DNA from: a virus
Taxonomy: Duplodnaviria; Heunggongvirae; Uroviricota; Caudoviricetes
Length of the DNA: 16,614 nt
IMG/VR virus record: IMGVR_UViG_2778261297_000002
Strand: one strand, 5' to 3'
In this document: positions 1-14,413 of the stretch, one piece after another
How positions within the stretch are numbered: the stretch's first letter is position 1
How the letters are laid out: every line of letters starts with the position of its first letter
Program-made: the position numbers and the translations under genes
Notes under the pieces: generated by a model
What the model was told of the DNA's origin: nothing
Database searches by the model: none
The model's input: only the letters and a program-made list of their open reading frames with translations

Positions 1-1227
1 ATGGCGGGCACTAACAAGCTAAGTGATAAAAAGCTCAAGGCACTCCAGGGGGCCAGCCGTGATGCGCCAGAAATGTATGCAGATGGTGAAGGTTTAAGCG
101 TCAGGGCATCAAAACAGGGTCAACTGAGTTGGGTATTCTCGTACCGGTTGGGTGGAAGGGGTAGCAAACTCGAACGTTTAACGCTTGGCCGTTACCCTGA
201 TTTGTCGCTAAAAGCTGCGAGAGAAAAGCGGGAAAAGTGTCGTCAGTGGCTGGCTGGTGGTCTTGATCCAAAAACAGAGCTTGAACTGAGCACCGAAGAA
301 ACGCTTAAACCTGTGACAGTACAGGATGCTCTCGAATACTGGCTGGTGAATTACGCCAGGAGAAAGCGCAGTGATGAGGAGCTGGTAAGGGCACAGCTAC
401 GCAAGCATATTTACCCGCGCCTTGGTCGTTATCCGCTCACCAGATGTGAAACCCGCCATTGGGTGGCCTGTTTTGATGAAATAAACCTGACCAAACCCAT
501 GACCGCCGGCCGCATGTTTCAGATTTCTAAACAGGCGTTACGTTTCTGCAAGGTTCGCCGCTATGCCGCCAGTGATGCTCTTGCCTTTCTTACCATTCAG
601 GATGTAGGCCAGCCATCCGGCCAACGTGACCGCGTATTGTCAGATAGCGAGCTGGCTGATGTGTGGCGCTCCACAGACAGCGATGATCAGCAGCCTTACT
701 ATTCACGTCTTCTCAAAATGCTAGTGCTGTTTGGTGCACGAACGATGGAGGTTCGCCTCTCTCGATGGTCAGAGTGGGATTTTTCCTCATGGATTTGGAC
801 AGTACCGAAAGAGCACAGCAAAACTCGCGAGAAAATAGTTAGATCGATACCTGAAGCAATACGTCCGTGGCTGGAAGAGTTAAAACGCGAGACAGGCAAA
901 ACGGGACTACTGCTGGGAGAAGATCGCACCCGTCAGGCTGTATCATTGAAAGGGCGCAGGCTTTATAAAGATTTCCACCATAACGAGCCTTGGACGCTTC
1001 ACGATCTGCGTCGCACGTTCTCCACGGGGTTAAACAATATGGGTATAGCACCACATATTGTAGAGCTGCTGCTGGGTCATGCCCTACCGGGCGTCATGGC
1101 TATTTATAACCGTAGCCTGTACTTGCCGGAGAAGCTCGATGCTCTGAACAAATGGTATGACCGCTTAGAACTTCTTGCGGGTAATCATCAAAATGTGGTT
1201 CTGTTATCTGTAACGAATAGAAATTAA
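1..1227 (+). CDS. int: Tyrosine recombinase / phage integrase (P4-type)
   Basis: 408-aa ORF with C-terminal tyrosine-recombinase signature (HDLRRTFSTG ... LLGH ... Y); TAA stop at 1225-1227; position at element edge. Confidence 0.9.
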   Translation: MAGTNKLSDKKLKALQGASRDAPEMYADGEGLSVRASKQGQLSWVFSYRLGGRGSKLERLTLGRYPDLSLKAAREKREKCRQWLAGGLDPKTELELSTEETLKPVTVQDALEYWLVNYARRKRSDEELVRAQLRKHIYPRLGRYPLTRCETRHWVACFDEINLTKPMTAGRMFQISKQALRFCKVRRYAASDALAFLTIQDVGQPSGQRDRVLSDSELADVWRSTDSDDQQPYYSRLLKMLVLFGARTMEVRLSRWSEWDFSSWIWTVPKEHSKTREKIVRSIPEAIRPWLEELKRETGKTGLLLGEDRTRQAVSLKGRRLYKDFHHNEPWTLHDLRRTFSTGLNNMGIAPHIVELLLGHALPGVMAIYNRSLYLPEKLDALNKWYDRLELLAGNHQNVVLLSVTNRN

Positions 1228-2200: not shown

Positions 2201-2284
2201 ACCAAGAAATATGCATCAAGATTCTCCAAACAACGCCAGAACAGATAGGAGGTGTTCCTTCTGAGAGCGTTAACTGGAGGGTTT

Positions 2285-2569
2285 ATGCTAAATACTGTTT
2301 TCATCCCACCAACGGCTGAGCAGCGCCGCCAAATTCTTAGGGACTACGGATTTGAATATGACCGACGTATTCGTGAGGCCGAATGCTTGGAAATAACTAG
2401 TCTTTCCCGCTCTACCCGCTGGAATATGGAAAATGATAGTAAGTTTCCCACCCGCTGCCACTTTGGGCGTAACAGCTGCGCATGGCTCCTATCTGACATT
2501 CTTTGGTGGGTTCGTAATCCGCCTTCAGTGTTAAACGTAAATAACCCGCACAGCCGCAAGTCTGCATAA
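2285..2569 (+). CDS. alpA: AlpA-family phage transcriptional regulator / excision activator (HTH)
   Basis: Motif pattern ...LEITSLSRSTRWNMENDSKFP...W typical of AlpA-type regulators; GGAGG just upstream of ATG 2285. The six-frame ORF starts at GTG 2252, so the start is ambiguous. Confidence 0.7.
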   Translation: MLNTVFIPPTAEQRRQILRDYGFEYDRRIREAECLEITSLSRSTRWNMENDSKFPTRCHFGRNSCAWLLSDILWWVRNPPSVLNVNNPHSRKSA

Positions 2570-2685: not shown

Positions 2686-3498
2686 ATGGTATCGAAAAAA
2701 ATTACTACCTTAACTGGTAGCGGCCAAACTCAATCTGAAATCAGCCTAGAGGATATTTCTGGTAATAATTTTGCTGCGCGAATTCCTGTAACCCTGAGCA
2801 ATATCGGCGGGAAAGAAACTCAGTCTGTAAGCGGCCGTAAGCTGCATACGTTTCTGGCTGTAGGGCGTGACTTTACCAACTGGAGCAAAGGGCGCATCAA
2901 GCAGTACGGGTTCGTCGAAGGGATTGATTATATGATTGTCGAATATTTGACCTCGCCAAAACGGGCGAGCTCAAAATCTCGCCAGCGTATTGAGCATGAC
3001 TACATTGTCAGCCTGAATATGGCTAAAGAGCTTTCTATGGTTGAGCGCAACGCGCAAGGCAAGATGGCTCGTCAGTACTTCATCGACTGCGAAGAACGCC
3101 TGCGCCGGGTCGCCCCTGAAGAACATGAGGCGGCGTTGCTGACATGGCGTAAAAATCGTGTAGCAGCTTGCGAAGATCACAAAAGCATGGCCGAGGCGAT
3201 GAAGGGCTATATCGAACGCACTGGAGATAAGCAGCACGGCTTTGCCTACAGCAATGAATGCACCTTCCTCAATAGCCTTGCGCTGGGTATGCACCCGCGA
3301 GCATGGGCGAAACAGAAAGAAATTCCGGTAAAGCAGGTACGCGACCACATGAACACTGAACAACTGGCGCTGCTGGCCTATCTGGAAAGCCGTAACTGCG
3401 CTCTGCTGGATCTGGATACCAGTACGGCAACCCGCAAGACGAAACTCACTGAACTGGCGCAACGTTGGCTGGTTAAAAGAGTGGGAGGTACAGCATGA
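2686..3498 (+). CDS. Phage antirepressor, AntA/AntB-like
   Basis: 270 aa. N-terminal LHTFLAVGRDFTNWSKGRIKQYGFVEGIDY and central SLNMAKELSMVERNAQGKMARQYFIDCE resemble the AntA/AntB antirepressor family; GGAG 8 nt upstream of ATG. Confidence 0.7.
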   Translation: MVSKKITTLTGSGQTQSEISLEDISGNNFAARIPVTLSNIGGKETQSVSGRKLHTFLAVGRDFTNWSKGRIKQYGFVEGIDYMIVEYLTSPKRASSKSRQRIEHDYIVSLNMAKELSMVERNAQGKMARQYFIDCEERLRRVAPEEHEAALLTWRKNRVAACEDHKSMAEAMKGYIERTGDKQHGFAYSNECTFLNSLALGMHPRAWAKQKEIPVKQVRDHMNTEQLALLAYLESRNCALLDLDTSTATRKTKLTELAQRWLVKRVGGTA

Positions 3499-3802
3499 TC
3501 GCGGATAAAACAAAGGCAGCTTTGCAGAGCTGCCTATGTCACTACGAAAAACCGAAACAGATTAAGCATACTAGGGTTAATGCTGATGGTCAAAACTTCA
3601 CCCAACTCAATTTTGAGGGCGCTGATTTTATTGGTTTTTTTAGCCAGCGCAATTCTGCGCCCACTGATTTTACTCAGCTTTTATGGCAGAGCCCAAAAGT
3701 GAGCTTTGCGTATAACTCATTGATTCCCGCATTCTTCCTCACTTTTGGGAAAAAGGGCGGGAAATCAAACCCTACCCTGTGCTTTCTGTTTCTTCAGTCT
3801 GA

Positions 3803-3916
3803 TTACCGTGTTAGCCAAATAAGGGCTTTAACAATCCAGTATGTGGAATACGCAGTTGCAACTAAAAAAACAATAGCGATTGCGTCTCGCCATTTACCCC
3901 GTTCCGTATCAGGCAT
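3803..3916 (-). CDS. Small hydrophobic peptide (37 aa, one predicted TM helix); kil/toxin-like candidate
   Basis: Hand translation of minus strand: MPDTERGKWRDAIAIVFLVATAYSTYWIVKALIWLTR. GAGGA 7 nt upstream; start lies 3 nt after the preceding stop. Below the ORF-track length cut-off. Confidence 0.35.
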   Translation of the reverse strand: MPDTERGKWRDAIAIVFLVATAYSTYWIVKALIWLTR

Positions 3917-3919
3917 AAA

Positions 3920-4057
3920 TCATTCCTCTGGATCTGCCTTAGCTTTTTTGCGCTGGTCTTCCTTGAGCTTTTTGAGAAATGATTCCAGCGGGAATTGCAT
4001 TGACTTAGCTTTTGGTTCTGCTTCGACGGGTTGCGAATTCTTCTGCTCTTTTGTCAT
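3920..4057 (-). CDS. Small lysine-rich protein (45 aa), unknown function
   Basis: Hand translation: MTKEQKNSQPVEAEPKAKSMQFPLESFLKKLKEDQRKKAKADPEE. AAGGG 7 nt upstream; start 3 nt after the stop of the upstream ORF. Confidence 0.35.
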   Translation of the reverse strand: MTKEQKNSQPVEAEPKAKSMQFPLESFLKKLKEDQRKKAKADPEE

Positions 4058-5493: not shown

Positions 5494-5855
5494 CCGATAT
5501 TTTTGAAGTGATAGGCCCATTGTTCCGCAAACTGACCGAAACCTGTATTGCTCACCAGATAGCGGAAACCGGTTCGGCAACCTTGCTGGTGGAAAGCGAT
5601 AAGTATATGGCCCGCTATCGCTTCACGCTGGAGCCGCGCGTAACTGAAAACGTATTGATGAAATATATGATTTTTGGCTGCTTTGAAGAATTCGGGCGCG
5701 ATGAGGGGTTAAGGCGTTTGCGGGATATTCTGCTGACCTGCTTTACCGACGATGGCGATATTAACGAAATGGGGTTGCAGATAGTGAAAAGCTGCCACCT
5801 TGAATACCTGCATGAAGATTTGGAAGCGGATCTTTCCAATAAGGTGCTGCACTGA
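5490..5855 (+). CDS. Hypothetical protein (121 aa)
   Basis: ATGA overlap at 5490-5493; GGAGG at 5476-5480. Confidence 0.6.
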   Translation: MTDIFEVIGPLFRKLTETCIAHQIAETGSATLLVESDKYMARYRFTLEPRVTENVLMKYMIFGCFEEFGRDEGLRRLRDILLTCFTDDGDINEMGLQIVKSCHLEYLHEDLEADLSNKVLH

Positions 5856-7987
5856 TGAAGATGAAAAACGCCCCAAACATTAAGTGTCTGCCAAAGGACA
5901 AGTTTACTGAGGCGATTATTTTTGCGGGGGAAGATGCTTATTCACACGCGCAGCACTGGATCGAGAGCGAGGGGAAAAGGGCGGGGGATGATGTGCCGCC
6001 TGTGTATCTGGGGAAAAAGCAGCTGGAGGAGCTTGAAAGGCTGAATATCATCGATCAGGGGCGTCGTTGCGTACGCGTGATTAGAGCTGGCGAGCTTTCC
6101 GAAATGCAGATAAGCACTATCGCAACCAAACTGGCGCTGGCGGATGTGAAAGAGGCCCGGCTGTTTAATGGCATGTTTGAGCCTCAGCCGAAGGAGAACT
6201 GGACGGATGTACTTCCACGGCTCAGGGAAGATGCCGAGCGTGGGGAAAGTATTGTGGTAAATCTGCCTGTGAAAAAAAGGGAGCCAAAGCCTGAACCGGG
6301 TGATGAACTGAAACCCCGCGTAGAGAGCCGTAACGATGGCCTGTACTGGATCACGCCAAAGGTGGATAAGGACAGCGGAGAAATAATCAATAACGAAACG
6401 TGGCTGTGTTCGCCGCTTGAGGTGGTGGGGTCCGGTAGTGACGGGGCCGAGCGCTATCTCGTTTTGCGCTGGCGTTCGCCACGTGGCCATGAAGATATTA
6501 CCAGGGCGATCCCCTGTGCTGATATCGGTGAGCGTGACGGCTGGCGCTCTCTAAAGGCTGGTGGGGTAAACGTAACGACTAAAAGTACATTCCGGGCAAT
6601 TCTTGCCGACTGGCTACAGCAATGTGGTGCAGGGCAGGAATGGATTATTAGCCATACCACCGGCTGGCATCACGGCGCATACATCATGCCAGATGGTGAA
6701 GTTATCGGTGATCCGGAAATGCCTATTCTCTTTAACGGTCGCAGCGCTGCATCTTCCGGTTATGCCGTGGCTGGAACTGCTGAGAGTTGGCGGGATTCAG
6801 TGGCATATCTGGCAGGAGGCAACCCATCGATGATGCTGGGTGTGGCTGCGGCATTGTCTGCGCCGCTGATCGGGCTGGTGGGCGCTGATGGCTTCGGCGT
6901 CCATTTGTTCGAACAGTCCAGCGCCGGTAAGACTACCACCGCAAATATTGCGAGCAGTATTTGGGGCGAGCCCGACGCTTTGAGGTTGACCTGGTACGGT
7001 ACCGCGCTTGGTATTGCTAACGAGGCAGAGGCGCATAACGACAGCCTGTTACCACTTGATGAGGTAGGGCAGGGCAGCAGTGCTAAAGATGTCGCCACGT
7101 CTGCTTACACTTTGTTTAACGGGGCTGGGAAGTTGCAGGGGGCTAAAGAGGGTGGCAACCGGGAGCTAAAGCGCTGGCGAACTGTTGCGATCAGTACCGG
7201 GGAAATGGATATTGAAACATTCCTGGCTGCTGGTGGAATTAGGGTGAAAGCTGGGCAGCTGGTGCGCCTGCTGAATATCCCCATGGAGAAATCCACGGCC
7301 TTTAACGGGCTGGCTAACGGAAAGGCCCACGCCGATGCACTGAAAGAGTCATGGATTGATAACCACGGCGCAGCAGGGCGTGAGTGGGTAAAATGGCTGG
7401 CAACCCACCAGCAGGAGGCTAAACAGGCTGTGCGGGATGCGCAGACGCGCTGGCGCAGTCTTATTCCGGCTGATTATGGTGAACAGGTTCATCGTGTGGC
7501 TGAGCGCTTCGCCATTCTTGAGGCTGCGCTGGTAACTGGTTCGCCGATAACTGGCTGGAGTGAACAAGCCAGCCGGGATGCTATTCAGCATAGCTTCAAT
7601 GCCTGGGTAAAAGAATTCGGAACAGGTAACAAGGAGCACCAGCAGATCATCGAGCAGTGCGAGGCCTTTCTGAACGCGCATGGTATGAGCCGCTATGCTC
7701 CGCTGCCATACTGCCCGTCAGATATGCCAATTCGTGATATGGCTGGATACCGCGAAAGGGGCAAGCATGATGATTCGCCGATGGTGTTTTATACCTTCCC
7801 TTCTGCGTTCGAAAAAGAGATAGCGCAGGGGTTCAATGCGAAGCAGTTCGCCAGAGTTCTGTCTGAATCTGGAATGTTGACACCCCCAGCAAGCGGCAGG
7901 GGATACCAGCGGAAATCACCGCGTATCGATGGGCGTCAGATTAATGTTTACGTCATTCAGTACCAGCAGGAGGGAACCGAAGAATAA
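5855..7987 (+). CDS. Phage/satellite primase-helicase-like replication protein (P4 alpha-like, P-loop NTPase)
   Basis: 710 aa; Walker A-like FEQSSAGKTTTANIASSIWG in the central region; TGATG overlap with the upstream gene; followed directly by the iteron array. Confidence 0.8.
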   Translation: MKMKNAPNIKCLPKDKFTEAIIFAGEDAYSHAQHWIESEGKRAGDDVPPVYLGKKQLEELERLNIIDQGRRCVRVIRAGELSEMQISTIATKLALADVKEARLFNGMFEPQPKENWTDVLPRLREDAERGESIVVNLPVKKREPKPEPGDELKPRVESRNDGLYWITPKVDKDSGEIINNETWLCSPLEVVGSGSDGAERYLVLRWRSPRGHEDITRAIPCADIGERDGWRSLKAGGVNVTTKSTFRAILADWLQQCGAGQEWIISHTTGWHHGAYIMPDGEVIGDPEMPILFNGRSAASSGYAVAGTAESWRDSVAYLAGGNPSMMLGVAAALSAPLIGLVGADGFGVHLFEQSSAGKTTTANIASSIWGEPDALRLTWYGTALGIANEAEAHNDSLLPLDEVGQGSSAKDVATSAYTLFNGAGKLQGAKEGGNRELKRWRTVAISTGEMDIETFLAAGGIRVKAGQLVRLLNIPMEKSTAFNGLANGKAHADALKESWIDNHGAAGREWVKWLATHQQEAKQAVRDAQTRWRSLIPADYGEQVHRVAERFAILEAALVTGSPITGWSEQASRDAIQHSFNAWVKEFGTGNKEHQQIIEQCEAFLNAHGMSRYAPLPYCPSDMPIRDMAGYRERGKHDDSPMVFYTFPSAFEKEIAQGFNAKQFARVLSESGMLTPPASGRGYQRKSPRIDGRQINVYVIQYQQEGTEE

Positions 7988-8007
7988 TTACACGTGAGGT
8001 TTATTTT

Positions 8008-8296
8008 GTTGGTTCAGTTGGTTCAGTAGGTAGTGTGTATCGTTATCGTGGTGTTTATATTGATTATTTTACACAGAAACTGAACCAACACTGAACCAAC
8101 AAATGACTGTTTTGAACCAACAAACGGGGGATTTGAACCAACATACCTACCCTGCCCGAATAAGTGTTTTTACTGAACCAACATAAAAACGGCGTTGTTG
8201 GTTCAAAACGGGGCTTTGTTGGTTCACTAAATAAAAATAAGTCTTTTAAAAACAATGTTCTTTACAAATTGAACCAACTGAACCAACTGAACCAAC
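8008..8296. repeat. Replication-origin-like iteron array
   Basis: 12 copies of the 9-mer TGAACCAAC: 8 forward (8081, 8092, 8113, 8134, 8174, 8270, 8279, 8288) and 4 inverted (8008, 8017, 8198, 8218), with an AT-rich stretch at about 8227-8269. Confidence 0.8.
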
Positions 8297-8333
8297 ATAG
8301 TTTTGTTTATATACGCAGAAAATGAGGTGAAAA

Positions 8334-8600: not shown

Positions 8601-8795
8601 ATGGCCTTTAACGATTTTATGGAAGAATCGGAATTGTTTGAGCTACTGGGCAAGAAAAAAACGGCTGTATGGCGGTTACGAAAAGACCATGGTTTTCCGA
8701 ATCCTGTTCTTACCTACCCGTCGCGCTACAGCCGCAAAGCTGTAATGAAATGGCTTGAGGATGGTGGTATTAACCGTACGGTTTGTGGTTATTGA
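8601..8795 (+). CDS. Second AlpA-like HTH regulator (64 aa)
   Basis: FELLGKKKTAVWRLRKDHGFPNPV...SRYSRKAVMKWLEDGG matches the AlpA-type pattern; GGAGG 6 nt upstream; terminator follows. Confidence 0.65.
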   Translation: MAFNDFMEESELFELLGKKKTAVWRLRKDHGFPNPVLTYPSRYSRKAVMKWLEDGGINRTVCGY

Positions 8796-8839: not shown

Positions 8840-9500
8840 CTGTCAGGTAGGGATGGATGTTGATCATTACCTGTAATCATTATTCTCCGGCATACCGTTC
8901 GCCTCTTCGCGTAAAGCTGCCAGTCCGTTAGACTCCTCGCCTTTCTGACCAGTTAGAAAAATCCTAGTGGTTAACATCTGTTGAATAAAACAGCAAAAAG
9001 GAGTTCACACCTTACGCACTATACAGTGCTACGCCCAAAGCCGCGTTAACGCTGGCTTTCTGGGGTATACACCCCTTGTGCATAAATAGTGAAACTTGTA
9101 TACAAAAATGAGGAAAATCAGCCTGCAAGGCGTACCAGATAAGGGATTTCTGTGTATACAGGTCAGCTAGTTAATAGGCCATTATTGAGCTGAGCACGGC
9201 AAGGCTGTATCGCAGGGCAGCTACACGCTGGCAGGAAGTCATGATGATTTGTGCTGAGGACGATGATCGGGAATGGGTAAAGCAGCGCCGTGAAACGTGT
9301 CTGGAGAACGTGAAGCGCCCGCCAGTGAAAACCGATGATTACGGCGATCTGCATAAAGCAGTCACTGAGACACAACACCGCATGGGGATAGCGCAACCAA
9401 ACGGCAATGCCTTCCGATTAAATGGTGGTAAGAAGCAACGACAGGCCACCAGCGGGGGCGACAGTTCGCAGTAAGGTTCGCACTAAAACGGCTGTAAATT

Positions 9501-9558
9501 CTGGACTGTCCTGGACGGATTTAAAACCCTAGCAGCGCCAGACCCGCGCCAGTAGTGG
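9501..9558. repeat. Conserved bipartite element, copy 1
   Basis: Arms CTGGACTGTCCTGGAC and AGACCCGCGCCAGTAGTGG, start positions 39 bp apart; near-identical copy at 10094-10151. Confidence 0.6.
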
Positions 9559-9686
9559 GCTGGAAGCTAAATCGTGATTCAGGACGTCCTAAATATCTGG
9601 TTAGTTCCACTGGTACGCAGTACGCAGTCAGGTGCGCAGCAAAACCGCGCATTCAGTTAGGGTTTTTGCGCACAGTGAGCCGTTAA

Positions 9687-10064
9687 ATGAAAAAAAATAG
9701 CCAACAATCAAGATCCGGATGGGGTGGCAAGCGGAAAGGCGCAGGCGCACCGTTGGGCAATACTAATGCCGTCAAACATGGCGAACGCAGTAGGCGGGCA
9801 TTCTTCCCGTTTGAGGGGGGCGAGGCGCTTTCTCCGCTGGTGCGAAATCGTGCAAGAAACCTCATGATGGCTGAGAGATACGGGCTATTACTGGCGACTA
9901 ATCCGACGCCGGGAACAGAAGAATGGCGCGAGATGACATTGATTAACGGACTCATGGGGCTACATGCCGACAGAATCGCACGGCTTGAGCTGAGTTTAGC
10001 GAGATCCGTTTCAATGCAAGCAAGGCGGGATCTGCGAAGGGTTAAAAAAAGCGGCGCATGTTAG
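9687..10064 (+). CDS. Basic N-terminus protein, possible terminase small subunit-like / packaging protein (125 aa)
   Basis: N-terminal GWGGKRKGAGAPLGNTNAVKHG Gly/Lys-rich motif reminiscent of some phage TerS N-termini; function unverified. Confidence 0.4.
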   Translation: MKKNSQQSRSGWGGKRKGAGAPLGNTNAVKHGERSRRAFFPFEGGEALSPLVRNRARNLMMAERYGLLLATNPTPGTEEWREMTLINGLMGLHADRIARLELSLARSVSMQARRDLRRVKKSGAC

Positions 10065-10093
10065 CAATCCGTATAGTCACCGATGTTGAAATA

Positions 10094-10151
10094 CTGGACT
10101 GTTCAGGACAGAACCAAAGCCCATATGAGGCGAGACCCGCACCAGTAGTGG
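10094..10151. repeat. Conserved bipartite element, copy 2
   Basis: Arms CTGGACTGTTCAGGAC and AGACCCGCACCAGTAGTGG with the same 39-bp register as copy 1. Confidence 0.6.
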
Positions 10152-10450
10152 ACAGAATCACGGGCGTGATTGAGCGTAAGACGGGGAAAGCAGCCAGAGG
10201 CATTGGCCTGACTCTGTAAAAGCAAAACGCCCGCACGGGCGTCAGGGAACGGGATAGACTTCTGCGACAATTTGCATTCGCCGCCAATATAGCAAGCCGT
10301 CCACATCAAGCAATAAACTATCACCGGGAGGGGGAGGCCAAATCTCTGCAACCCTGAGCCTTAAGGACTGCCCGCCTCATCGAATGTTTATACCCGCGAA
10401 AAATAAAATTTAATCTGGGCGTGTTTCATCCTTCCAGATGGGTATGACGT

Positions 10451-10636
10451 ATGACACCACGCGAAATAGCTTTATTGACCACCGCCAAACTGGAGCACGA
10501 AGGCCACCAGCTAACCCCGGCAGATCAACGGGAGATAGAACGCTCAGTTAATGCCGATATAGCCCGGCGTGACAAATTCCGCGAAATGATGCGATCACCT
10601 GCCTACCAGTGGAAGAAGCCAGCGCCGCGCAGGTAG
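10451..10636 (+). CDS. Small protein (61 aa), paralog of 14520-14711
   Basis: C-terminus MMRSPAYQWKKPAPRR parallels MTAPAYQWKRPDNPRR in the second copy, with similarity across the whole length; weak RBS. Confidence 0.45.
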   Translation: MTPREIALLTTAKLEHEGHQLTPADQREIERSVNADIARRDKFREMMRSPAYQWKKPAPRR

Positions 10637-13825: not shown

Positions 13826-14413
13826 ATGTCGCTGATGAGTGTGAGTCAGTACGCTAAACACGCAGGGCTAAGTCGTCAGGCCCTCTACAACTGGGAGGCT
13901 AAGCAAGGTTTCCCCGCACGAGTGGACGGCAAGATTGACCAACTGGCCTGTGATGCCTACCTGGCCCGATACCGCAGCGCCAGTGACCCGCGCACGAAGA
14001 ATGCCAGGGGGAAAACCAAATCTGCTCCAGCCGGTCAGGCGCAGGGGAGTGCGCTGGTGGAAATGAGTGTTGCGGAGATTAAGCGCATCATAGTGTCAGG
14101 TGCCGGTAAGGTGGCCGGGATGGATCCGGACGAACGAGCCCAACTGGCTGCAAAGGCCGTAGAGCTGTTTGTAAGCGAAGGGCCTTATAACCCTCCTGTA
14201 ACGTTCGGCGGCTACCGGCTGTCGATTGTTGAAACGCCAGATGTTGAAATCGGGCAGATCATCGCGGGCGGCGCGTTCGGCCTGTCTGCATATGATGTGA
14301 TTTACGAGTGCCGGGATTACACCCTGACTCTCATGAGCGATGAAACCGAAGAAACAGCCATGCGGAGAGTGATCCCTTCGTTGCTGTATGCCCTGGCCGA
14401 CGATACCGACTAA
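13826..14413 (+). CDS. HTH-containing protein (195 aa), N-terminal MerR/Nu1-like helix-turn-helix
   Basis: N-terminus SVSQYAKHAGLSRQALYNWEAKQGFP looks like a phage HTH; AGGAG 7 nt upstream; strong terminator downstream. Confidence 0.65.
   Translation: MSLMSVSQYAKHAGLSRQALYNWEAKQGFPARVDGKIDQLACDAYLARYRSASDPRTKNARGKTKSAPAGQAQGSALVEMSVAEIKRIIVSGAGKVAGMDPDERAQLAAKAVELFVSEGPYNPPVTFGGYRLSIVETPDVEIGQIIAGGAFGLSAYDVIYECRDYTLTLMSDETEETAMRRVIPSLLYALADDTD

Follow-up and report, generated by a model that had tools for sequence, protein, structure and literature searches.

Two copies of a duplicated leader in an Escherichia coli satellite island carry a tandem hexamer element shared with the DUF2280 gap of phages, a candidate small-terminase recognition site

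The viral record IMGVR_UViG_2778261297_000002 (16,614 nt, referred to as a whole as the window) is 100% identical to a segment of the chromosome of Escherichia coli EC09, where the host genes gcd and hpt flank an island. Its gene layout identifies it as an integrated Gram-negative satellite resembling the phage-inducible chromosomal islands (PICIs): an integrase, an excisionase-type regulator and a primase followed by an iteron origin of replication (ori) lie within the ~10-16 kb between host genes, and no virion gene was found among the window genes. The iteron array is probably the replication origin of the island. A PerC-family gene lies farther downstream and, in many islands, adjoins the leader described below; PerC variants and duplicated cos sites have been documented in E. 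coli PICIs (PMC6092414). We analyzed two segments of this island, 9501-9558 and 10094-10151, which flank a 125-aa gene (gene A) and which a preliminary description, made from the sequence alone, had presented as a pair of 58-bp bipartite elements. The features are listed in Table 1.

The paired arms at one register reported in that description were confirmed. The left arm reads CTGGACTGTCCTGGAC at 9501-9516 in copy 1 and CTGGACTGTTCAGGAC at 10094-10109 in copy 2 (14/16 identical), and the right arm reads AGACCCGCGCCAGTAGTGG at 9540-9558 and AGACCCGCACCAGTAGTGG at 10133-10151, respectively (18/19 identical). Both pairs are offset by 593 bp and thus share a common register, with divergent centers (10 of 23 positions identical). 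The view that the similarity is not due to chance was also borne out, as the right-arm pattern did not occur in 200 dinucleotide shuffles and the arms recur in relatives; the left-arm pattern gave a mean of 0.30 matches per shuffle and two or more matches in 8 of the 200. Similarity between the copies begins 5 nt earlier than initially noted, with AAATT in copy 1 and AAATA in copy 2. The left arm is composed of two near-identical hexamers one helical turn (10 bp) apart, followed by GGAT. The arms were also found in related elements of E. coli (loci L002-L005), Atlantibacter/Shimwellia (L006, L021) and Klebsiella/Enterobacter (L045-L048).

These relatives showed that the 58-bp segments are not discrete elements but the 5' parts of a long non-coding leader that is present twice, before gene A and before a second gene, gene B. 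An nhmmer profile built from a six-copy seed matched the window at 9493-9648 (E 8e-49). In an alignment of 11 copies the leaders differ by 1-nt indels, indicating that they are non-coding. In relatives, both copies extend for another ~100-340 nt past the position equivalent to 10151, and the Klebsiella leaders of L045 and L048 have ~190 nt more than copy 1 of the window. The continuation contains, in order, GCTGGAAGCC, GATTYAGG, GTCC, an invariant AATAT, CCACTGGT and arrays of GT(T/A/G)CGCA(G). A diverged pair of leader copies, with the arm, GTCCTAAAAAATA and a GTACGCA array, was also observed at 5560-6300 of IMGVR_UViG_3300011647_000018 (L105), next to a tape-measure-like open reading frame (ORF); they precede unrelated genes, showing that the leader is a portable upstream module.

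Full-length leaders precede both genes in L003 (strain S43) and L004 (strain D5). L003 has the order leader, gene A (125 aa), leader and gene B, the last being intact at 3325-3936 and encoding 203 aa that include two CxxC pairs. The alignment of the window covers L003 3036-3154 and resumes only at L003 3871-4018, with which window positions 10154-10300 share 95-98% identity, so that ~716 bp are missing. The ends of the deletion share microhomology: the leader has CCAGTAG(C/T)GG, and gene B, close to its 3' end, has CCGGTAGTAG. Copy 2 has thus been cut after the right arm by a microhomology deletion that removed the rest of the leader and most of gene B, and the right edge of the 58-bp unit, at 10151, is the deletion junction. 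The description of both segments as non-coding holds for copy 1, which falls in the interval from the PerC stop (9474) to the gene A start (9687), but copy 2 lies inside a 53-aa ORF (10058-10219). The latter is a chimera made by the deletion, with the last 22 codons of gene B as its tail, and it was not called by the Prokaryotic Genome Annotation Pipeline (PGAP) in the identical EC09 record. L002 has undergone a reciprocal kind of event, in which recombination between both leaders led to the loss of gene A. A 7-codon mini-ORF after the gene-B-type arms was dropped from consideration, as its length is not conserved.

Gene A was also missed by PGAP in the EC09 record, but it is a real gene. It has at least 108 homologues in Enterobacterales, every one of them annotated "hypothetical," with an invariant N-terminal motif (GWGGKRxGAGAPxGNTNAVKHGERS). 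The label "terS-like" that it had initially received stems from a weak match to PHROGs phrog_1889 (terminase small subunit; E 0.004) restricted to a 20-residue motif. An AlphaFold2 model showed a disordered N terminus and a helical hairpin, for which Foldseek returned only generic coiled coils from the PDB and no structural match. No match to gene A was found in phages by tblastn, no homology was detected with the phage metallopeptidase described below, and sequence searches of the PDB with gene A, the 195-aa protein encoded farther downstream and DUF2280 yielded nothing usable. The terS-type gene that is linked to the arm is a different one, DUF2280, which is missing from the window.

The Klebsiella and Enterobacter relatives have TCTGGAC(A)GTYCTGGACGGAT 30-49 nt past gene A, and a DUF2280 gene (PF10045, PHROGs phrog_546) starts ~11 nt beyond this sequence. 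The arm is present at this distance (30-49 nt) from gene A (136 nt in one case) in 16 related satellite loci, in which the surrounding sequence is not conserved. In the satellites it goes with DUF2280, in the order gene A, arm, DUF2280, and not with a metallopeptidase or large terminase gene. The E. coli lineage, including the window, has no DUF2280 gene and has two arms flanking gene A.

The preliminary description had proposed to look for the arms upstream of late genes of helper phages. A scan of IMG/VR for CTGGACNGTNCTGGACGG returned 73 stretches, ~38 of which are phage contigs of 25-90 kb with an identical context, ...GGCTTAATAA-CTGGACTGTACTGGACGGATGGTGAAAC-ATG, always directly before a gene beginning MAALKPEVKA. 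In those contigs and in Klebsiella phage ST899-OXA48phi17.1 (MK448236), the sequence preceding DUF2280 is identical to the left-arm 20-mer at 19 of 20 positions. In the latter phage, the lysis genes are followed by a metallopeptidase gene (PF18894), a 31-nt gap with the arm, DUF2280, terminase, a portal-position gene and head genes. The left arm is therefore found in candidate helpers, lambdoid phages of Klebsiella and E. coli, before a packaging gene, whereas the right arm was absent from the phage sequences compared. The left arm was the sole significant match between the leader and those sequences, in which the rest of the satellite leader has no counterpart.

DUF2280, a family with ~3,900 homologues, was detected by tblastn in 328 phage records. 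In every region inspected (phages of Klebsiella, Salmonella [Oslo], Pseudomonas, Vibrio, Acinetobacter, Erwinia and Rhizobium), the large terminase gene is its immediate downstream neighbor. The adjacent large terminase is annotated as PBSX family or ES18-like, and DUF2280 itself is annotated as a small terminase in some records, e.g., that of Burkholderia phage Magia. The AlphaFold2 model of DUF2280 has a predicted local distance difference test (pLDDT) score of 52, with an N-terminal three-helix bundle at 65-85. Its top six PDB matches in Foldseek were all to the Sf6 small terminase, with weak scores (E 0.08-0.24). Gene order, some annotations and these weak structural matches point to a small-terminase function. 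No solved structure of the family was found in searches of the PDB, nor a functional study of it in the literature searched. The record OZ035751.1 (Lambdavirus PDP110P1; L236/L235, positions 1 and 48490) opens 1 nt 5' of the hexamers, 29 nt before the DUF2280 ATG; this opening point could be a mapped packaging terminus or simply a choice of the pipeline.

A 6-7-nt direct repeat spaced by one helical turn precedes DUF2280 in 11-12 of 14 diverse phages. For the first 11 phage types, the best direct repeat was at offset 10 or 11 (Fisher combined p = 3e-8 by shuffling), and the summed best-match profile peaked at offset 10, with 59 versus 35-43 elsewhere; two of three further phages were also repeat positive. 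The sequence of the repeat varies with the DUF2280 lineage. Four Klebsiella-type lineages have CTGGAC/CTGGAC, (C/T)TGGAA/TTGGAA, CAGGAC/TAGGAC and TTATAC/TTATAC, phage Oslo has TATGAC/TATGAC, Pseudomonas phage MR13 has ATAGAC/ATAGAC, the Acinetobacter phages have GTTATAC twice (Acba_11) or TACGTTG twice (phi4197), and a Rhizobium phage has CTTGAT twice. Two pairs were found in satellites only, TTGGAC/TTGGAC (L053) and TAGTAC/TAGTAC (L004 and L005, upstream copy). Across phage genera, this gap thus generally contains tandem repeats at offset 10-11, the halves of which change in concert. That the half-sites remain alike while their sequence shifts indicates that one protein domain, in two copies, reads the site, and the one-turn phasing argues for recognition of DNA rather than RNA. 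As the site stays with DUF2280 in satellites, DUF2280 is the most economical candidate for its binder.

Given these observations, our preferred interpretation, to which we assign a probability of about one half, is that the left arm is a small-terminase recognition site of the pac type copied by the satellite. The DUF2280 small terminase would bind the hexamer pair as the recognition part of a pac-type packaging signal. Satellites encoding DUF2280 would use the site with their own protein, whereas the island of the window, devoid of DUF2280, would depend on that of its helper. Docking of the helper small terminase on replicated island DNA would then start headful packaging of the satellite. 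The site adjoins the gene in small-terminase position and its repeats would suit a multimeric helix-turn-helix (HTH) protein, as in pac sites; as in mimics of helper signals, a near-identical short sequence is present at the helper packaging region and is conserved among satellites. Among 5426 E. coli genomes, 42 have gene A and 52 have a DUF2280 prophage, with an overlap of 4 versus 0.40 expected (P 6e-4), although two of the four genomes are probably one clone. This co-occurrence and the opening point of OZ035751.1 lend weak support to a pac site. In contrast, the duplication-deletion history and the identity of the left arm with the phage element preceding DUF2280 are well supported. The earlier proposals of a protein-binding site and of a packaging signal thus stand in part: the anatomy of the left arm, with its hexamers 10 bp apart, and its recurrence before the phage gene in terS position agree with them, but the right arm has no counterpart in the phages compared and no cos site of the lambda type was found.

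Several points weigh against this interpretation. EC09 itself harbors, outside the window (L232, chromosome 3781625-3782113), a lambdoid prophage with metallopeptidase, DUF2280 and terminase genes, but its repeat is TTTGAC-tgat-TATGAC and not CTGGAC. Checked as a possible helper, this resident prophage gave no direct support, since its hexamers differ. Similarly, the prophage of strain 35 has CTGGAC/TAAGAC, and hexamer types can differ within one island, L004 having both a TAGTAC pair and a CTGGAC pair. No simple code was found to link the recognition helix with the hexamer. A lone 19/20 match is not significant at the scale of whole genomes, and its weight comes from its position and recurrence. 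The co-variation in phages could partly reflect linkage, and the DUF2280 model is of low confidence, as its pLDDT score indicates. The gap sequence of the DUF2280 phages is itself a putative pac site, deduced from sequence. Finally, the small terminase of the SPP1-like phage SF6 binds its box repeats weakly and nonspecifically in vitro (PMC4737164).

The position of the repeat is also a difficulty. Across phages of many genera, a tightly kept distance of 10-13 nt (12 in most cases) separates the end of the repeat from the DUF2280 ATG, and the repeat directly adjoins the Shine-Dalgarno sequence (GGATGG), an arrangement that fits control of terS expression equally well. The hexamer pair might thus be an operator, through which DUF2280 represses its own gene or another late regulator acts, at the ribosome-binding site or on the DNA preceding terS. 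Satellites would have inherited it with the DUF2280 cassette, and in the window it would be a relic or would let the small terminase of the helper regulate gene A and gene B. Consistent with this, DUF2280-bearing satellites keep the same spacing, and in gene-B-type copies an ATG is retained ~15 nt past the arm. However, the arm of copy 1 is 186-390 nt away from the next start codon in the window and its relatives, and yet its pair is conserved, including as TAGTAC/TAGTAC. The one-turn phasing likewise does not favor recognition in the mRNA, but an operator acting at the DNA level would be compatible with both distance and phasing. We consider an operator unlikely, although it is, with a promoter/operator function, one of the main alternatives.

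The tandem hexamers might in addition serve as a sensor, with the helper small terminase switching on interference and packaging genes of the satellite late in infection. DUF2280 would then bind DNA in a sequence-specific manner and tune its own gene in the phage, and the satellite would have set its site atop the leaders of gene A and gene B. If so, a terminase subunit would be the inducing signal for satellite late genes, a speculative proposal that we regard as improbable.

It may also be that the pair has no present function, the two leaders being the product of a tandem duplication and a deletion and the left arm a joint left by exchange of the DUF2280 cassette. Duplication, deletion and recombination between the copies are documented here, and the region is a mosaic with large indels. 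Nevertheless, a matched pair has been kept in the 16 related satellite loci amid unconserved sequence, and in no fewer than seven distinct types the two hexamer halves have changed jointly, which is not the behavior of neutral relics. A nonfunctional pair is therefore very improbable.

The rest of the leader, in contrast with the copied site proposed for the left arm, appears to be the satellite's own. The right-arm core (CCGCGCCAG..GGCTGGAAGC), AATAT and the CGCA arrays have been kept ahead of different genes and have a regulatory look; they probably form a promoter/operator region. The CGCA-type motif has 6 matches in 9455-9686 versus 0.87 expected. GT(T/A/G)CGCA(G) arrays also precede gene A and gene B in L012, L023, L024 and L045, and Rosenbergiella and a Serratia metagenome-assembled genome (MAG) have, ahead of gene A, several direct copies and one inverted copy with another central base. 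The Klebsiella leaders have two perfect TGCGAATTCGCA palindromes.

One may therefore ask whether the leaders as a whole are activator-dependent promoter/operators, the arms being upstream sites for a regulator of the island or helper, as in the late promoters of P4. Candidate regulators would be the neighboring PerC-family protein, the HTH_17 protein (8601-8795) or a late activator of the helper. The unit is always directly upstream of a gene and in the same orientation, be it gene A, gene B or the other genes of L105, and both AATAT and TGGTNCGCAGTNCGCA are invariant in 11 copies. The CGCA arrays and the TGCGAATTCGCA palindrome are operator-like, and a PerC-family gene is adjacent in many islands. 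Nevertheless, no sigma-70-like promoter was detected by scanning 9475-9686 and 10065-10260, AATAT has no matching -35 hexamer and was not picked up by that scan, no -35 is conserved, no TGT-N12-ACA activator box is present in the aligned copies, and no terminator precedes either copy. Moreover, the phage arm lies in a 31-nt gap inside a late operon, where a promoter is not expected. Inspection of the aligned copies by eye for sigma-54 sites, Ogr/Delta boxes and CsrA GGA motifs led us to discard them, as key bases are not conserved; the TAGTAC and CTAGAC arm variants lack GGA. We hold this explanation to be quite unlikely for the whole unit, but it may be true of the right arm and the 3' half, and it is compatible with a recognition site in the left arm. 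As to two of the functions first suggested, a promoter and a recombination signal, neither a promoter consensus nor recombination machinery was identified.

A scan of viral contigs with the right-arm pattern gave mostly chance matches in GC-rich DNA. Among them, P2-like prophage contigs (L239 at 1530-1640, L242, L259, L281, L283 and L290) contain CCGCGCCAGTTCTGGGCTGGAAG..AAAAATATT flanked by TGTGCA repeats, an element that resembles the right arm, GCTGGAAG and AATAT and that represents a single independent event. It adjoins the portal (Q-like) gene, where P2 cos is located, and is followed by genes resembling a defense cassette.

Lambda-type cos sites or a structured RNA, either nut-like or a small RNA, were considered as well. 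EcCICFT073 has a pair of cos sites called cos1 and cos2 (PMC6092414). The N terminus of the island's 195-aa protein resembles the lambda small terminase Nu1, and the bipartite layout is superficially similar to boxA/boxB. However, the best matches to cosN (GGGCGGCGACCT) in the window have 2-3 mismatches, are no more common than in shuffled sequence and fall outside the unit; the only one within two mismatches is inside a coding ORF. At the DNA level, the region as a whole matched nothing in the phage collection. Rfam gave no match in the leader region, and RNAalifold on the 11 copies found 0 of 20 predicted pairs to be compensatory, with a positive, unfavorable covariation term. Both possibilities are thus largely refuted. 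Halves of a P2 cos site, GGCGAG (10128) and CGGGGAAAGCA (10182), were also rejected, as they are 48 nt apart and the second belongs to a run of gene B codons that relatives do not conserve.

Three observations concern other parts of the island. The Rfam int-alpA RNA motif (RF02996) is present at 1236-1303 on the plus strand, directly 3' of the integrase gene, with 60.8 bits where the gathering score is 35.8. The leader (9597-9620) and the 3' end of a 61-aa gene (10451-10636), at 10599-10622, are connected by an inverted repeat of 24 nt with 83% complementarity, and in the Serratia MAG an array of GGTACGCAG directly follows the end of that gene. Lastly, the PHROGs family matched by the 195-aa protein is one that we take to be a small-terminase family of the Nu1 type. 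From its sequence the protein may be a packaging redirector resembling Rpp, although neither a PDB match nor a sequence match to Rpp was found.

Table 1. Coordinates and characteristics of the features discussed in the text
Feature	Position	Strand	Remarks
Tyrosine integrase	1-1227		
Excisionase-type regulator	2252-2569		PHROGs phrog_2790
AntA-domain protein			In the island
DUF927 primase	5855-7987		
Dense TGAACCAAC iteron array	8000-8300		Direct and inverted orientations; directly after the DUF927 primase gene; probable replication origin
HTH_17 protein	8601-8795		
PerC-family gene	9181-9474	+	Directly 5' of leader copy 1; Pfam PF06069, E 7e-15; PGAP coding sequence of the identical EC09 record
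Leader unit, copy 1	9493-9686	+	Abridged form of a non-coding module of 150-400 nt; precedes gene A
Left arm, copy 1	9496-9520	+	AAATT-CTGGAC-TGTC-CTGGAC-GGAT; two hexamers, 10-bp spacing
Right arm, copy 1, plus conserved GCTGGAAGC	9540-9567	+	Core CCGCGCCAG..GGCTGG kept in 11 satellite copies
AATAT	9592-9596	+	Invariant in 11/11 copies; possible weak -10
GT(A/G)CGCA(G) repeat array	9612-9675	+	One inverted copy; directly before gene A
Gene A	9687-10064	+	125 aa; conserved satellite protein
Left arm, copy 2	10089-10113	+	AAATA-CTGGAC-TGTT-CAGGAC-AGAA; 30 nt past the gene A stop
Right arm, copy 2	10133-10151	+	Terminates at the deletion junction
Gene B 3' remnant	10152-10219	+	Ends in DRITGVIERKTGKAARGIGLTL and a stop; from alignment to L003
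195-aa protein	13826-14413	+	N terminus matches PHROGs phrog_57, E 2e-9

The arrangement proposed for the left arm, a recognition site for the helper small terminase, can be compared with known systems. In SPP1/SF6, the direct repeats boxA, boxB and boxC of pac span promoters and the start of the small-terminase gene, although the boxes contributed little to small-terminase binding in vitro for SF6 (PMC4737164). The likeness lies in short direct repeats at the 5' end of a small-terminase gene, in a headful phage whose small terminase has an N-terminal HTH. Here, however, the small terminase is DUF2280, which has no Pfam terminase domain, and the site is a candidate only, made of one 6-7-nt repeat pair in a 31-nt gap.

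A parallel in terms of strategy is PLE, which mimics the pac site of phage ICP1 with 14 identical bp, located within an 89-bp region and shown to be needed for transduction (PMC11417361). In both cases an otherwise unrelated satellite shares one short sequence of the helper packaging region, conserved among satellites and placed between the satellite ori and a cluster of small uncharacterized genes. The helper pac site and the requirement of the shared bases in transduction are known for PLE, whereas we infer both here; in addition, the window island has two copies and some of its relatives encode their own DUF2280.

With PICIs of the EcCICFT073 type, for which cos1/cos2 and the Rpp system have been described (PMC6092414, PMC6739421), the island shares an integrase gene, a primase gene with an iteron ori behind it, a gene of the PerC family and candidate packaging signals that are duplicated and lie past the ori. 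It differs in the absence of lambda cosN/cosQ, and its candidate helper is a pac-type lambdoid phage with DUF2280 rather than a cos phage of the Nu1 type. The R elements of lambda cosB, bound by gpNu1, are likewise repeated small-terminase sites beside the small-terminase gene. They are 16-bp elements in mixed orientation around a site for integration host factor, beside cosN, whereas the left arm consists of one plain tandem pair, for which no nicking site was identified. The P4 late promoters Psid and PLL are activated by Ogr, Delta or Cox of P2, and Cox binds phased direct repeats. They resemble the arm as proposed here in being satellite cis-elements that respond to a late protein of the helper, but the aligned copies have neither TGT-N12-ACA nor a promoter consensus, and the island has no psu, sid or delta gene.

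The copying of helper packaging signals by satellites is a known strategy; what would be new here is its association with an uncharacterized small-terminase family. DUF2280 occupies the small-terminase position in hundreds of temperate phages of Klebsiella, E. coli, Salmonella, Pseudomonas, Acinetobacter, Vibrio and others, for which the phased hexamer pair at the start of the gene, co-varying with the protein, represents a concrete pac candidate that is cheap to test. If our interpretation is correct, it would explain how widespread PICI-like islands of Enterobacterales, some of which have no terminase gene, are packaged by pac-type lambdoid phages. The matching of hexamer types would then predict helper-satellite pairs from sequence, and the site would provide a small, portable packaging tag for the engineering of transducing particles.

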